Below the pieces are notes generated by a model. The model was given only the letters and a program-made list of their open reading frames with translations, had not been told where the DNA came from and did not search any database. Below are positions 18,830 through 60,542 of a stretch of 64,000 nucleotides of DNA, one piece after another (position 1 is the first letter of the stretch; the number at the start of each line of letters is the position of its first letter). The translations under genes were made by a program, and so were the position numbers. This stretch comes from Carcharhinus amblyrhynchos (taxonomy: Eukaryota), in NCBI GenBank assembly GCA_965287045.1, contig OZ336878.1:69874001-69938000 (forward strand), written 5' to 3'.

Positions 18830-19225
18830 TATTCATTTGTGGGACATGGGCGTTGCTGGCTGGCCAACACTTATTGCCCTCCCCAGTTGCCTGGGGCAAG
18901 TTGAAAGTCATGGAGCCGCATGTTGGCCAGACCAGGTAAGGATGGCAGATTTCCTTCCCTAAAGGACATTGTCAGGAAAACCCATCTGATTCACCAATCA
19001 ATAGTGGTTTTGTGGTCATCAGTAGATAATTAATTCCAGTTTTTTTTTATTGAATTCAATTTCCACCATCCCTGTGGCAGGATTTGAATCTATTATCTAT
19101 TATCAAATAAATTGGTTGGACTAAAACCTGGTGTTGTCAGACTTTTTACTGCAGGATTTGAACCCCAGAACATTAGCTGAGTTTCTGGCTTAATATTTTA
19201 GTGCCACTAAGCTGTTGCCTCCCCA
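18830..19225 (-). mobile_element. tRNA-derived SINE sharing its 3' end with the antisense LINE family (older copy at ~18555-18780)
   Basis: Tail ggacatgggcgttgctggctggccaacacttattgccc as in the LINE copies; body ggtaaggatggcagatttccttccctaaaggacatt; minus-strand B-box-like ggttcaaatcc. Confidence 0.7.
19089..19150 (+). mobile_element. PLE terminus micro-insertion
   Basis: Nearly identical to 58810-58859; flanked by 12-bp duplication gcaggatttgaa (19077-19088 and 19151-19162). Confidence 0.8.
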
Positions 19226-29404: not shown

Positions 29405-32350
29405 TTTTAATTAATTTGTTGGACGTGTGTGTCCCTGGCTGGCCAACATTTATTGCGTATCCCTTGTTTCCCTCTACGGTGGTGGTGAGCTGCTGCCTTG
29501 AAACCCTGTAGTCCACGTGCTGTGGGTTGACCCACAATGCCACTGGGGAGGGAATTCCAGGATTTTGACCCAGACGCTGCGAAGGATTGGCGATATATTT
29601 CCACATCTCTGGGGAAATCTGTGGGAAGGCATAGGAACTTCTGGTAGGTGGGACACTTTCAAAAGTCTGTTCACCAGGGTTCTGGGTAAGCACATTCCTC
29701 TTAGACTGAATGACAAAGCTGCCAGAAGCAGGGAACCCTGGATGACTCGGAATATTGAGGCCTTGGTCAAGAAAAAGAAAGAGGCACGGTGCCATTGACA
29801 CCTGGGATCAAGTGAATCCCTTGAAGAGTATGAGGGTTTAGAAGTAGAGTTGAGATCAATCAGGAGGGCAAAAAGGGGACATTGTTTTGGCAGCTAAGGC
29901 AAAGGAGAATCCAAGGGCTTCTACAAATACATGAAGGGCAAAAGAGAAACAAAGGAGAGAGTAGGGCCTCTTAAGGATCAACAAGGTCATCTATGTGCCG
30001 ATCCACAAGGGATGGGTGAGATCCTAAATGAATATTTTTCATCAGTATTTACTGTTGAGAAAAGCATGGACGTTAGGGAACTTGGGAAAATAAATAGTGA
30101 TGTCTTGGAGTGTACATATTATAGAGAAAGAAGTGTTGGAAGATTAAGGCGCATCAAGTTAGATAAATCCCCAGGACCTGATGAGGTGTATCCCAGAACA
30201 TTGTGGGAGGATAGGGAGGAAATTGTGGTCCCCGAGCAGAGACATTTGAATCATTGATAATCATGGGTGAGGTGCCTGAAGATTGGAGAGTGGCAAATGT
30301 TGTGCTTTTGTCTAAAAAGGGCTGCAGGTAAAAGCCTGGGAACTACAGGCCAGTGAGCCTCCCATCTCTGGTGGGTAAGTCGTTGGAAGGTATTTTGAAG
30401 ACAGAATCTACAGGCATTTAGAGACGCGAGGACTGATTAAGCACAGTCAGTATGGCATTGTGAATGGAAAATCATGTCTGTCAAGTTTTGATTGAGTTTT
30501 TTGAAGGGGTAACCAAGAAGGTAGATGAGGGCAGTGCAGTTGATGTTGTTTATACAGATTTTAGCAAGGCCTTTGACAAGGTACCACATGGTAGATTGTT
30601 GCATAAGGTTAAATCTCAAGGGATCCAGGACGAGGTATTGAGTGGATACAAAATTGTCTTCATGACAGAAGCCAGAGGGTGTTTGTGGAGGGTGTTTTTT
30701 TCCAACTGGAGGCCTGTGACCAGCAGTGTGCCTTGGATGAGTGCTGGATCCACTGTTGTTTGTCATGTATATTAGTGATTTGGATGAGAATATAGGAAGC
30801 ATGTTTATAAGTTTGCAGATTACACCAAAATTGGTGGCGTAATGGATGGTGAAGAAAGTTATCTCGGATTGCAACCGGATCTTGATCAGCTGGGTCAGTG
30901 GCCTGGGGAATGGCAGATGGAATTTAATTTAGATAAATGCGAGGTGATGCATTTTTAGATTGAACAAGGGCAGGACTTACTCAGTTAACGGTAGGACATT
31001 AGGGAGAGTTATAGAACAGAGATCTAGGAGTACATGTTCATAGCTTCTTGAAAGTGGAGTCACAAGTGGACAGAGTGGTGAAGAAGGCATTCAGCATGCT
31101 TGGTTTCTTTGGTCAGGACGTTGAATTCAGGAATTGGGATGTCTTGTTGAAGTTGTTCAAGACATTGGTAAGGCTACACTTGGAATACTGTGTACAGTTC
31201 TGGTCACCCTGTATAGAAAGGCTATTATTAAACTAGAAAGAGTGCGGAAGAGATTTACTAGGATGCTACCGGGACTTGATGATTTGAGTTATAAGGAGAA
31301 GCTGGATAGACTGGGACTTTTTTCTCTGGAGTGTAGAAGGCTGAGAGGTGAACTTATAGAGGTCTATAAAATAATGAGGGGCACAGATCAGCTAGATAGT
31401 CAATATCTTTCCCAAAGGTAGGGGAGTCTAAAACTGGAGAGCGTAGGTTTAAGGTGAGGGAAGAGATACAAAAGTGTCCAGAGCGGCACTTGTTTCACAG
31501 AGGCTGGTGAGTGCCTGGAACAAACTGCCAGAGGTCATAGTAGAGGCAGGTACAATTTTGTATTTGCAAAAGCATTTAGACAGTTACATGGATAAGATGG
31601 GTATAAAAGGATATGGGCCAAATGCAAGTAATTGGGATTAACTTAAGGGTTTTAAAAAAAAGGGTGGCATGGATAAGTTGGTCTGAAGGACCTGTTTCCA
31701 TGCTGTAAACCTCTCACTCTATGACCCTGTCAGGATGGTGAGTGGCTTGGAGGGAAAGCTGCAGGTGGTGGTGTTCCCAAGTATTTGCTGCCCTCATCCT
31801 TCTAGATGGAAGTGATATGGGTTTGGAAGGTGATCCCTAAGGATCTTTGGTGAATTTCTGCAGTGCATTTTGTAGATAGTACACACTGTTGCTGCTGAGT
31901 GTTGATGGCGGAGGGAGTGGATGTGGTGGTGATCAAGCAGGCTGCTTTGTCCTGGGTGATGTCAAGCTTCTTGAGGTGCACCCATCCAGACAAGTGGGAA
32001 GCATTCTGCCACACTCCTGATTTGTGCCTTGTAGGTGGTGGACAGGCTTTGGGGAGTTGGGAGGTGAGTTACACACTGCAATATTCTTAGCCTCTGACCT
32101 GCTCTTGTAGCACTGTTTGTGGCAAGTCCAGTGGAGTTTCTGGTCAATGGTAACCCCAATGACAGTTGGAGATGCAGTGATGGTAACACCATTGAATATC
32201 AAGGGGCAATGGTCTTACTGTTGATGGTCATTGATGGTAGTGTGAATGCTACTTGCCACTTGTCACCCAAGCTTGGATATTATCCATATCTTGTTGCATT
32301 TGAACATGAACTGCTTCAGTATCTAAGGAGTTGCAAATAGTGCTGAACGT
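29405..32350 (-). mobile_element. Antisense LINE 3' portion (CR1/L2 group), split by the CR1 insertion
   Basis: 29405-29602 continues at 31729; minus frame GQRLRILQCVTHL.TPQSLSTTYKAQIRSV; same family as the copies at 8.0, 11.3, 13.0, 57.1 and 62.8 kb. Confidence 0.85.
29603..31724 (+). mobile_element. 5'-truncated CR1-clade LINE (RT domain, decayed)
   Basis: DKSPGPDEVYPR, NYRPVSL, VDVVYTDFSKAFDKVPHGRLL, KFADYTK, LVRLHLEYCVQFWSP, LERVRKRFTRMLPG; 3' tail ending ctctatga; many frameshifts. Confidence 0.95.
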
Positions 32351-39079: not shown

Positions 39080-39383
39080 GTATTATGTTTCACTTCAATA
39101 GCTAGTGCATTTTTATTAAAATGATGAACATGCTTGTTGTAGTTACATTGTATCCTATTGTTTCATTTGTTGTGATACGTTAGTGTTTCTGATTCTGTGT
39201 TCAATGCTAAAAGTGCAGACCTTCCTGCATGACACTGTTGAGTAGCATAATTTTTAACGCAAAAGACTGGCAAAGTATTTACTGGATGAAAGAGACTTGA
39301 GAGGGTAACCAAAACCTGCTTGAGATCTCTGAAGGGGAGAGAAATGGAGAACTTTTTAGGAGGATCGCTGCTGCTAAAGGTGC

Positions 39384-39586
39384 CAGTGAGAAGTCTGTCA
39401 ACGCCAGGTTAAAGACCAACTGCTTTATTTGGTATCACAAGCTTTTGGAGTGCTGCTCCTTCGTGACTCTTCTGATGAAGGAACAGCGCTGTGAAAGCTT
39501 GCGATACCAAATAAATCTTTTGGACTTAACCTGATGTTGAGTGACTTGATGTGCCCACCCCAGTCCAACGCTGGCATCTCCACATC
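39384..39586. mobile_element. Miniature inverted pair of PLE termini with hammerhead core
   Basis: Diverged ~80-bp inverted arms; CTGATGA (39472) and GAAA (39493); tail gtgcccaccccagtccaacgctggcatctccacat; flanking direct repeat aaaggtgccagtg (39376 and 39587). Confidence 0.82.
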
Positions 39587-40217
39587 AAAGGTGCCAGTGT
39601 GGAGTGAAGACTGGGGGTTGTGTGCTCAAATTGCTGGGAACAGAATTTGAAGGGAATATGGGTCTGGAGGAAAGTGCAGGAGTGGGATGAAGAGGAGGTA
39701 AAACTTAAAAATATGAAGTTTTTGAGCTCAGAACAGCAAGCCAGTGTAGTTCAGTGAGGGCTACGGTGAAAGTAAAGCAGGACTCAGTTTTGGCTAATTT
39801 GGAATTAGTGAAGGAAGGGAGACTAGCAAGTTGATTTGCAGTTTGTGACAGCAAGTTTTGCACAACTATCAGGATAAAGCTAATGACAATAACTGTTTGA
39901 GGTACATGATATAGCAATTTTAGGGGGCAAATCTGAGTTAAATGTGAATATTTGGTTTATCTGGATTGTATCATCAACATAACCAAAACAGCAATTTGCT
40001 ATCTGTCTTGACAATGACTTGGAGTTGCACCTTGAACTTTGAATGCCACAAAGTTGCTGCATTCACGCAACAGATAAATGAAATTCACCATGGATATTTC
40101 AAGTGATTTAAGTACCTTTTTTTAATGATTAATTTCTGCTAAACTGCCTGTAGCAATTAAGTTATGGCATTGCTCATTTATTCCTTCAGGTTTTGAATGT
40201 TTCAGATGTTCATATAT

Positions 40218-56021: not shown

Positions 56022-56779
56022 GTGAGTAGTTATAAGCATTTTAAACACTTAGTGCACCAAAGTAGAACATAGTTAAATTTAATTCTTGAGGTTTGTTTTT
56101 ATTGCCTCAAGTATTTAGTTGACATATAGCTTTTTAAATAGGGATTGGATGTGATCAAGTAAGTGACCATACACTTTGAACAAATTTTGTTTTAAAGATC
56201 TGAGGTGGATGGAAGTTAAATAACAGCTTAAATTGTAGCACTAATTATACTGGGTTCAACAACTTGAATGTCATGCCACCCAAACACTGTGCTCATTAAT
56301 CATAAGGAAAGTTAGTAGCCACTTTTTCAAATAGAAGCTTAATTTGTGCAGTTTAGTAAACAGACGAGTAACAGTGAACAATGGGGCTCTTGAGAGCGTA
56401 TGAAAAGAGTAATTTTGGCAGTTTTTACCTGTGGCATAAATTCCAGTGATGGGAGAGGCGGACGTAAATGAGAGAAACAAAAACCAAGATTGCTTGAAGA
56501 AAGATTGAATATTCTTGGGTATCATATAATTTTTTTTGAATTAGCTTAGATCAAATTTTGTCAGAGCAGTGTACCCTTGTCATTTATAACCTGCTTTTTT
56601 ATTCCTTATCCTGATGCTGGTTTTTCTAATGATTTAACTTAAATCTTCCACAGCTCCTTATTTACCCCCCTGCGAATGTGCAGAAAACACTTTAATGCTA
56701 TTGCTGAAGACGACCCGATTGTGAAGTGAAATGTAGTTCATTTATGGGATATGGGTTTTGCTGGTTAGGCCAGCATTTC

Positions 56780-57088
56780 ATACAATCATTGTGCAGGAGG
56801 AGGCCATTCAGCCCATTGAGTCTGCACCAACTCTGAGCATCATGCCCAGGCCCACCCTTGTGTCCTATCCCATTATAATGGCTAATCCATTCAGCCCACG
56901 CACACTTGGACACTGAGGGGCAACTTAGCATGGCCAATCCCCCAAATCCTCACATCTTTAGACTGTGGGAAGAAACCCACATAGACGTGAGAATAATGTT
57001 CAAACTCCACACAAACAATCATCCAAGGACAGAGTTGAACCCAGGTCCTTGGTGCTGTAAGGCAGCAATGCTTGCCACTGTGCTGCCC
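56780..57088 (-). mobile_element. HE1-type SINE nested in a LINE 3' end
   Basis: Reverse complement of the 22079 family; LINE sequence on both sides. Confidence 0.85.
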
Positions 57089-57645
57089 ATCCCTGATTGC
57101 CCGTAAGAAGATGGTGGTAAGCCTTCTTGAACTTTTGAATCCCTGTAGTGTAGGTATGCCCACAGTGCTGTTAGGGGGATTCCAAGATATTGACTTGGCG
57201 ACAGTGAAGGAATGGTAATATATTTCCAGTCTGGATGGTGAGTGGCTTGGAGGACAACCAAGTACTGATGTTCCCATATGCCTGCTGCATTATCCTTCTA
57301 GGGTTTTGAAGGTGCTGCCTATGGAGCCTTGGTGAGTTCCTGCAGTCAATCTTGCAGATGGTGATACATGTTGCTACCACTGTTTTGTCAGTGGTGGTGT
57401 GAGTGAATATTTCTGGATGGGTAGCAATCAAATGGACTGATTTGATTTGAATGATGTCCAGCTTAAGTGTTGTTGAAGCTGCACTCATAAGCAAGTGAAC
57501 AGTATTCCATCACACTCCTGACTTGTGCCTTGTAGATGGTGGCAGACTTTGGAGAGTCAGGAGGTGAGTTAATCACTGCAAGACTCCCAGCCTCTGATGT
57601 GCTCTGGTAGCCACAGCATTTAGTAGGCTAGTCCAGTTCCATTTC
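57085..57645 (-). mobile_element. LINE 3' fragment (3' tip at ~56745-56780, separated by a SINE)
   Basis: Same family motifs (acagtgaaggaatgg, ttccatcacactcctgacttgtgccttgtagatgg). Confidence 0.8.
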
Positions 57646-57836
57646 CTCTGCACTATTAATATGGCAGCAAATGTTCTTGTTTTTAATTTAAGTAAGCAGA
57701 GCTCTTATTTTAGCAGTAGACTGCATTAAAAGCCAATAGCATGGTGAGTTAGTATATTCTTACACTGAGATGGAAATTACAGCTCTACTGACCAAAGAAT
57801 TGAATATTAGAGGCATTGTTTGACTGTCTTTATAGG

Positions 57837-58894
57837 CAGTAAAAAGTCTGACAACACCAGGTTTTAGTCCAACCGATTTATTTGATAGTAAACGCACAAG
57901 CTTTTGAGGTTTCCCTCTTTGTCAGGTGAATGGAGAGTTCTGGCCTCAGACAGAGCATATAAAGCACAGACAGTTTAGAGATTACTGATTAGAAAGCGAA
58001 TCTTTACACCTAACCTGCTGTTCAAGTCCTAAAGTGGCTGACAATGTGAGTGGAAGGAGCACTGATCACAGGTTAAAGAGATGTGTAGTGTCTCCAGACA
58101 GCCCAGTGAGTGAGGTTTTGCAAACCCAGGCAAGTCACGGGGGTTACAGATAGCGTGACATGAACCCAAGATCCCTGTTGAGACCGTCCTCGTGTGTGCG
58201 GAACTTGGCTATCAGTCTCTGCGCTGTCGTGTGTCGTGAAGGCCGCCTTGGAGAACGCTTACCCGAAGGTCAGAGGCTGAATGCCCGTGACCACTGAAGT
58301 GTTTGCCAACAGGAAGGGAACAGTCTTGCCTGGAGATTGTCGAGCAATCATGCTCGACAATCTCCAGGCAAGACTGTTCCCTTCCTGTTGGCAAACACTT
58401 CAGTGGTCACGGGCATTCAGCCTCTGACCTTCGGGTAAGCGTTCTCCAAGGCGGCCTTCACGACACACGACAGCGCAGAGACTGATAGCCAAGTTCCGCA
58501 CACACGAGGACGGTCTCAACAGGGATCTTGGGTTCATGTCACGCTATCTGTAACCCCCGTGACTTGCCTGGGTTTGCAAAACCTCACTCACTGGGCTGTC
58601 TGGAGACACTACACATCTCTTTAACCAGTGATCAGTGCTCCTTCCACTCACATTGTCAGCCACTTTAGGACTTGAACAGCAGGTTAGGTGTAAAGATTCG
58701 CTTTCTAATCAGTAATCTCTAAACTGTCTGTGCTTTATATGCTCTGTCTGAGGCCAGAACTCTCCATTCACCTGACAAAGAGGGAAACCTCAAAAGCTTG
58801 TGCGTTTACTATCAAATAAATCGGTTGGACTAAAACCTGGTGTTGTCAGACTTTTTACTGTGTTTACCCCAGTCCAACGCCGGCACATCCACAT
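57837..58894. mobile_element. Penelope-like element, 5'-truncated head-to-head palindromic insertion
   Basis: Arms 57837-58346 and 58351-58860 are reverse complements; they encode a GIY-YIG-type C-terminus (STISRQDCSLPVGKHFSGHGHSASDLRVSVLQGG / LIAKFRTHEDGLNRDLGFMSRYL*); 34-nt tail on one side; TSD tgtctt(t)atagg. Confidence 0.88.
58769..58802 (+). ncRNA. Degenerate minimal hammerhead ribozyme motif in PLE terminus (mirror copy 57895-57928 on - strand)
   Basis: cac-CTGACAA-a-gagg-gaaa-cctc-AAAA-gct-t-gtg; layout matches CUGANGA/stem II/GAAA/stem I with two G>A core changes. Confidence 0.65.
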
Positions 58895-59118
58895 GTCTTA
58901 TAGGCCCCAGGGATGGGCAAGTGTGGCAAATGTAAATTTTGCACTGTATGGTGGGCACCCTACTGAGGTTTGAGCCATTTTGTTAGTATTGTATTGACTC
59001 TGCACATGGATCTCTCAACACCGGATTATCCTGAACTGTTAGATGCCAAAAAATATTGTTCGTTGCAACAGTTAATGAATTATCTGAAACTTAATTGATG
59101 CTCTGTCTTTGTCTTTAG

Positions 59119-60390
59119 GCCAGACTTGGTTGTTGATCGTTCCATAACTGGGGAAGATGGTAAACCAGAGCAAGAGTCTTCTGATCCAAGTACTCACAAA
59201 GAGAACCTCATTGTGCAGCTGGTACAAGATGAGGATGAGGAATTAGTGAATCGGCAGTCCACTGTCACTCTTCTAAAACCTGAAGATGATGACGATGATT
59301 ATATTAGAGGCAGTTGGTTTGAAACTGAAACACAGACGTACTGCAGTGAGCTGCCTGGTATTTCTTGTATTTCTAATTTCCAAGAGTATATTTATAAATC
59401 CTGCTTCCTCATTGTGGCCCTCCGAAGGCAGCGCAGCCAAACACTCCTAGTTAATGAAAAAGTTCAACCAGTTCCTGACATCCACCACCTTTTAACTGGG
59501 CAGAAGGAAACTGTTTTGATCAATGAGACAAAGGAAGTGATTGAGGATGAATTGGACAGCCTGTCTGCTGATAAAGTGACGAAAGTTAGCAGTGAAAGTC
59601 AGTCTAGTACTGATTTGCCTGATAGTTTAACCAATCAGACTGACACTATTGAATTGGAGCCCAGCCATCCTCCACCTGCTTCCCATTCTCCTGAAGTCAG
59701 TACATCTGATACAAAATATGATGTGAAATGTACTGCCGTTCTTCACAGTTCTGATGATATTGTCACTGACACACTGTCTGACCAGATTCATCTTCGACCA
59801 GAGCTTACTGTACCCATTCTGGAACAAAGTACAGAAACTAAATTGGACACCCCACAGAAGGAAATAACTGAAGCTCCAGAGGAGACTTTGCTAATATTAG
59901 AAACTGAAGCTGCTAACGAGACCAGCTTGGGTGTTTTACCAAATGGGTCTATGAACGAAAACCAAGAAACTGCTCAAATACCAATCACGCCGACAGTGCC
60001 CATACAGCCAGCTGATAGTATAGATGAGCATCTAGCAACTGAGATTCAGAATGAAACTACTGGTGGGAAAAGGACCTTGGTAGAAACGGAAGTAGCTTTG
60101 CTGCCTTCAGGTTCAGATATTTCTGTCTCATCAGCAGCAGAGACAAAAGATGAAGATCAAGCTGCAGAAGACATCCTCCTGCCTGTTCCATCCTCAAATG
60201 GGCTAAATAGAACAGTTACTGATTTCTATGCAGAATTGCACAATGTTACTGATCTGGGATATACTAATGGGAATCAAGTACATGGATCCAATCAAAAGGA
60301 GTCTGTATTTATGCGGCTCAACAACCGTATCAAGGCATTAGAAATGAACATGTCCCTGAGTAGCCGGTATCTAGAAGAACTGAGCCAACG
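59119..60390 (+). CDS. SUCO: SUCO large coding exon (~exon 18, 1272 nt)
   Basis: Matches the 425-aa ORF; IVQLVQ, STVTLL, WFETETQ.YCSEL, DFYAEL and HGSNQKESVFMRLNNRIKALEMNMSLSSRYLEELSQR; tctttag / cg|gtgtgt. Confidence 0.97.
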
Positions 60391-60542
60391 GTGTGTACAA
60401 TAGCCTGGAGTGGTTTCTGCACCTTTTTAAACATTTGCTTGAGACACAAAAATGTGTTTTAATCATTAAGCAACGTATATTTTAATGTTTTGTAGAGAAA
60501 AAATGTCACTGAAACCTGTACTTTTGTGGTGTTGCTGGTGAG

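Follow-up and report, generated by a model that had tools for sequence, protein, structure and literature searches.

The intron that precedes the largest coding exon of SUCO in Carcharhinus amblyrhynchos contains a kilobase-long, almost perfect palindrome, which raises the question of what this structure is, how its two arms came to lie head to head, and whether it matters for the host gene. Within the window (i.e., the whole 64-kb stretch of DNA analyzed), the left arm (57837-58346, minus strand) and the right arm (58351-58860, plus strand), 510 bp each, are reverse complements with exactly one mismatch (A/A, 58070/58627), and they meet at a 4-nt spacer, ATCA (58347-58350), which constitutes a head-to-head junction. 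The alignment of the arms reproduced to the base the arm coordinates, the spacer and the single mismatch given in the initial annotation. Pairing ends at once beyond the arm limits, and this pair is the longest among the 38 inverted pairs found in the window; when only exact palindrome arms with a spacer of at most 20 nt are counted, the locus reaches 276 bp (up to the mismatch) and the runner-up in the window only 14 bp. A chance palindrome was rejected as a reading of 57837-58860.

The right arm alone is followed by a 34-nt tail (58861-58894, plus strand), as had been claimed, and the final base of this tail doubles as the first base of the right copy of a target site duplication (TSD). The left TSD copy (57825-57837, plus strand, 13 nt) shares its last base with the first base of the arm, and the right copy (58894-58905, plus strand) has 12 nt; 12 of 13 positions are matched, with one gap within a run of T. 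The duplication is therefore present, but it is one base longer than was proposed earlier. Equally good scores were obtained by 11 of 20,000 random anchored pairs (the locus itself is possibly among them). When the search box was loosened and only the exact 8-nt core was considered, 89 of 3000 random loci performed as well; since such a core is common by chance, the TSD call rests on the gapped, boundary-anchored match. Outside the TSD, the flanks show no mirror symmetry (local score of 9 over 300 nt). The tail pattern had no exact match in prokaryotic genome contigs and none in plasmids or phages, and a protein query translated by reading through from the arm end into the tail gave four candidates, none at E ≤ 10.

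The identity of the arms was indicated by protein comparisons. All 15 protein candidates matched the 44-aa translation of the right arm (74-93% identity), 10 having shark names at NCBI, and tblastn placed the last ~70 residues of the relatives on both arms, in two frames. The coding part corresponds to the C-terminal ~69 codons of the endonuclease with the stop codon (58351-58553, plus strand; mirrored in the left arm), and is interrupted by a frameshift near 58479. Among seven relatives scanned against Pfam, RVT_1 was found in P0012 (above the cut-off) and P0014 (below the cut-off), and GIY-YIG in P0007 and P0014, weakly and under the curated cut-off. A reverse transcriptase (RT) upstream of the endonuclease in one ORF was seen in relatives only, being absent from the truncated copy at 57837-58860. 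The same scan, applied to the peptides of both arms and to the SUCO exon, revealed no relevant family and no GIY-YIG; in the arm fragments, GIY-YIG is missing because they are truncated downstream of this motif. Hence, the GIY-YIG match expected from profile searches was recovered faintly in the relatives and failed in the arm fragments themselves. A Glyco_hydro_3 match in this query set (E 0.035) was dismissed as chance.

On these sequence grounds, the arms are assigned to the 3′ end of a shark EN+ Penelope-like element (PLE), i.e., its GIY-YIG endonuclease end with the pseudo-LTR, and both the protein matches and the arm geometry uphold the earlier reading of an inverted pair of 5′-truncated PLE copies. 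The features of EN+ PLEs found here comprise the endonuclease end, the inverted 5′-truncated adjacent copy, a tail of the 30-40-bp class and the TSD. A MITE or another DNA transposon was rejected (PLE coding sequence is present and the tail is asymmetric), as was a tandem non-LTR retrozyme (the unit is inverted rather than tandem and carries PLE coding sequence); an intact coding element was likewise rejected as the identity of the insertion.

A CX2-5CxxC linker before the Cys-bearing endonuclease core was present in all seven relatives inspected singly and in 102 of 150 wider relatives, and the two His of the CCHH motif fall within the arm. According to the available part of PMC8557442, this linker is a mark of the Neptune and Nematis clades and is absent from Penelope and Poseidon. 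Neptune was preferred over Nematis because vertebrate PLEs are classed as Neptune or Poseidon (bioRxiv 10.64898/2026.07.22.740005, available in part). By these motifs, the clade is probably Neptune.

Within the pseudo-LTR of the right arm, a minimal type I hammerhead-like motif was recognized (58769-58802, plus strand), with a short helix I, a helix II with G10.1-C11.1 and a bulged A before it, and palindromic positions 15.2-16.2, as in the minimal hammerheads of metazoan PLEs (PMC4209133). Its counterpart in the left arm lies at 57895-57928 on the minus strand (core at 57925; bounds mirrored from the right arm). Unlike the published motifs, both arms have A at the core positions G8 and G12, and the hammerhead is predicted to be inactive; moreover, the two motifs are ~850 bp apart, while the paired opposite-strand motifs of Schistosoma are ~100-700 bp apart (PMC4209133). 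A relaxed hammerhead descriptor gave four matches on both strands of the window, two of which are these arms, and Rfam at the gathering score gave no match over the whole window, hammerhead included. None of the four pieces taken from the tail and hammerhead regions folded clearly better than shuffles (z of 0.12, −1.80, −0.06 and −0.07, the first being that of the tail at 58861-58894).

Two further insertions of the family were found in the window. A second palindrome (39376-39599, plus strand) belongs to a related, more divergent subfamily; its arms match at 59 of 75 positions around a 14-nt spacer and it is flanked by an exact 13-bp TSD. Its tail is also one-sided, on the right arm only, and homologous to that of the SUCO intron copy (26 of 34 aligned positions are the same), and its right arm retains both G8 and G12. 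A solo 3′-end fragment (19077-19162, plus strand) of the same subfamily as the SUCO intron arms is identical to the arm end at 52 of 54 nt and has an exact 12-bp TSD; it stops, without a tail, at the tail-less boundary, the proximal element end at which the left arm of the large palindrome also ends. As the solo fragment ends tail-less with its own TSD and a one-sided tail recurs in the second palindrome, both element ends are regarded as true start sites, and the presence of two more insertions in the window indicates that the architecture is a property of the family. The initial annotation had the structure of the large palindrome right but overlooked the hammerhead motif, the defects common to both arms and these two family members. 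As side observations, the solo fragment appears to be inserted into another repeat, and the center of the second palindrome sits at the hammerhead 5′ core; 16 arm differences in 75 positions beside an exact 13-bp TSD would be ~5% likely under equal ageing (simple arithmetic), which is a weak hint that its arms derive from different RNA templates.

The defects common to both arms are central to the question of origin. The frameshift near 58479 was found in each arm in the tblastn placement of relatives, and comparison with the protein relatives suggests a short deletion of about 13 nt. Three substitutions are also common to both arms and absent from the aligned relatives (0/14, 0/15 and 0/10), and they may be species-specific subfamily states. 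These changes, together with the replacement of G8 and G12 by A, coexist with only one difference in 510 positions between the arms. Independent decay of both arms from an intact template was rejected, as the changes are identical in each; in a rough rate test using amino acids only, such decay would give ~20 differences (P = 3e-8), with a lower bound of ~4 (P = 0.08). The shared defects imply either a recent event in which a defective RNA served as template in trans or a later homogenization of the inserted arms. Recent copying in trans, performed twice, is favored because of the high CpG content (observed/expected of 0.54 in the arms and 0.79 in their coding part, against 0.23 in the window) and because the second palindrome was not homogenized, whereas the indel between the TSD copies mildly favors later homogenization. 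The frameshift cannot belong to an autonomous template.

Taken together, we regard it as moderately probable that a Neptune-type PLE was genuinely inserted here, fairly recently and in a single event, from a defective RNA moved in trans. Inverted, 5′-truncated copies with a one-sided tail of 30-40 bp are typical of PLEs, and the mobilization of non-autonomous PLE sequences in trans is described, in the available parts of PMC8557442 and PMC3846280. For the Poseidon element PAc of the lizard Anolis carolinensis, in vitro work showed two start sites of reverse transcription, one on either side of the tail, as well as cutting and extension of both DNA strands (with a dimer predicted) and a dispensable pseudo-LTR hammerhead (PMC11167929). 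By analogy, the endonuclease of an intact element would nick both strands 12-13 nt apart, as expected from PLE biochemistry, and, with one and the same defective PLE RNA as template, reverse transcription would be primed from each nick; only one arm would be tailed because the two primings would use start sites 34 nt apart. Both cDNAs would stop at the same point, their 3′ ends would be joined via the 4-nt spacer, and the strands would be filled in. Because the frameshift and the altered hammerhead core would have pre-existed, the template would have moved in trans and the insertion would be unable to encode a working protein. Two-nick priming as the cause of inverted insertions is an extrapolation from Poseidon, which is a different clade, and inverted insertions were not reconstituted in that paper. 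A point against a recent origin is the 1-nt indel between the TSD copies, which is slightly likelier for an older insertion.

Such an older insertion is the starting point of another history, possible but considerably less probable, in which the arms were kept alike by hairpin- or cruciform-templated repair (quasi-palindrome correction or arm-to-arm conversion), so that the frameshift and the CpG-type changes, having first appeared in a single arm, were transferred to its partner. Beyond the TSD indel, it would account for loss-of-function changes in both arms against a single difference, and on inspection of the sequence the two hammerhead changes resemble genomic CpG decay. The arms, however, are still CpG-rich, and the smaller palindrome of the window stayed unhomogenized. 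An old structure-forming palindrome is, moreover, more likely to gain a central deletion. The instability of long palindromes with short spacers is reviewed in PMC7999016, the available part of which also indicates that a 4-nt spacer and long identical arms favor hairpin formation; for bacteria and yeast, homogenization of inverted repeats by template switching is described, and for apes, short-range template switching, in sources available in part. On the other side, mobilization in trans, as cited above, has itself been described for PLEs. A broader and still more tentative proposal is that near-spacerless shark PLE palindromes undergo concerted evolution, with arm-to-arm repair copying mutations across the center. 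If true, concerted evolution would preserve kilobase-long, near-perfect dsRNA templates within introns of ordinary genes well beyond the death of the element, a small autosomal counterpart of Y-palindrome conversion, seeded by the integration chemistry of a retrotransposon.

Fold-back synthesis, in which a single cDNA primed at the tail end folded back and copied itself, the second arm being cut or stopped at the tail boundary, appears unlikely. It explains the same truncation point, the loop-sized spacer and the shared defects without an extra assumption, and self-priming has been proposed for palindromic PLE junctions (PMC3846280, available in part); but in each of the two palindromes the copy would have had to terminate precisely at the tail boundary, and the solo fragment shows that the tail-less boundary is an independent start site, as in vitro (PMC11167929). 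Least credible of all is a fold-back artefact of the assembly or library, or polishing that made less similar arms look identical. The near-perfect identity and tiny spacer would fit it, and PLE inverted structures trouble assemblers (PMC8557442, available in part), yet the flanks are unique and unmirrored, the unit is tailed on one side only and enclosed by a TSD, and the order and phase of the SUCO exons are preserved across it. One difference between the arms also persists, and the window contains another palindrome built in the same way, the arms of which have diverged.

Turning to the host gene, 16 plus-strand matches to SUCO exons, spanning 23740-60391, were colinear, and a weak additional match on the minus strand was disregarded. 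The element lies in a phase 2 intron of 3097 nt (56022-59118, plus strand), followed by an exon (59119-60391, plus strand; its end is the end of the alignment) that corresponds to residues 540-963 of Mustelus asterias SUCO and is 92% identical to it, and 86% to that of Scyliorhinus, values that suggest a carcharhiniform shark. As this exon spans 424 residues, only 313 residues come after it, and the mapped upstream exons are all short, it is considered the largest SUCO coding exon. The right arm ends 258 nt before the exon start, which bears out the placement some 260 nt upstream of the acceptor proposed initially, and the palindrome takes up a third of the intron.

The predicted fold of 57837-58860 is one ~510-bp duplex (−1069 kcal/mol) with 265 adenosines, which supports, at the level of a model, the suggestion of a dsRNA hairpin of this size in SUCO pre-mRNA. 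Precedents of long intramolecular duplexes derived from transposons, resembling the one predicted here, are the hyper-editing of lizard Penelope and frog Harbinger arising from self-folding repeats (PMC5625713, available in part) and the siRNA arising from Penelope inverted repeats in Drosophila (PMC3681739, available in part). By such class precedent, the hairpin is a plausible ADAR or Dicer substrate.

Two signals in sense to SUCO are embedded in the right arm, namely a 5′ splice-site-like sequence (58432-58440, plus strand; exon end at 58434) and, in the pseudo-LTR, an AATAAA hexamer resembling a poly(A) signal (58815-58820, plus strand). Three of the 15 protein matches (P0013-P0015, all Mustelus gene models) exit the PLE frame at the donor-like site, and these gene models suggest that it may be usable in unpaired PLE copies; in the SUCO pre-mRNA, the duplex would bury its own cryptic donor and AATAAA and leave with the intron. 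That the hairpin is kept for SUCO regulation, be it inclusion of the large exon or functional edited RNA or siRNAs, seems very unlikely: these signals, the short distance to the acceptor, the share of the intron occupied and the very stable predicted duplex speak for it, but both splice sites lie outside the hairpin, the exon junction around the intron translates as in Mustelus, and in a family as common as this one (three insertions in 64 kb) an intronic insertion is expected by chance. Most likely, the palindrome is no regulatory element but tolerated junk, the transcript of which is a likely ADAR substrate.

The inverted-pair architecture is the published norm for PLEs, and the SUCO intron case is a real EN+ PLE insertion. 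As in the Neptune-clade EN+ PLEs of PMC8557442 (available in part), there are the endonuclease end, the CX2-5CxxC linker of the relatives and the inverted 5′-truncated copy with a 30-40-bp one-sided tail; unlike them, the locus has only ~69 codons and the pseudo-LTR, arms of equal length, a 4-nt spacer and shared inactivating changes. The Pen2a/Pen2 elements of Adineta vaga (PMC3846280, available in part) similarly show inverted pseudo-LTRs, palindromic head-to-head junctions, an optional 31-bp tail, TSDs and mobilization in trans. However, their TSDs have 8-10 bp, against 12-13 bp here, and they often have an ORF between the repeats and short junction palindromes, whereas here the whole 1-kb insert is palindromic. 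In the literature searched, the coverage of which was incomplete and did not extend to supplements, no paper on shark PLE palindromes was found.

The single locus is an ordinary PLE insertion, and its value is that of a clean record of how PLEs make inverted insertions. The three insertions in the window present both element ends, 12-13-bp TSDs and the one-sided tail, in agreement with the two RT start sites seen in vitro. The shared defects set up a sharp genome-wide contrast between recent trans-mobilization of dead copies and homogenization of arms after insertion. Should palindromes of this kind be as frequent as the window hints, a large share of the long endogenous dsRNA of sharks could come from them.

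Several minor observations were also made. The PLE endonuclease end lies inside the Mustelus asterias host gene models P0009, P0015, P0013 and P0014 (FAM210B isoform X1, USP8 isoform X2), which possibly reflects recurrent exonization or an annotation artefact. The left TSD copy scores as acceptor-like (intron end at 57835) and the target site resembles the true SUCO acceptor (59108-59119), probably by coincidence. Broken RT-like coding remnants at ~29900-31200, matched by P0237 and P0281, resemble what we take to be a decayed LINE. Finally, two inverted dispersed repeats, 22112-22326/40305-40519 (88%, 215 nt) and 11623-11676/15739-15792 (94%, 54 nt), are probably SINE or LINE copies and could possibly form further long-range dsRNA.
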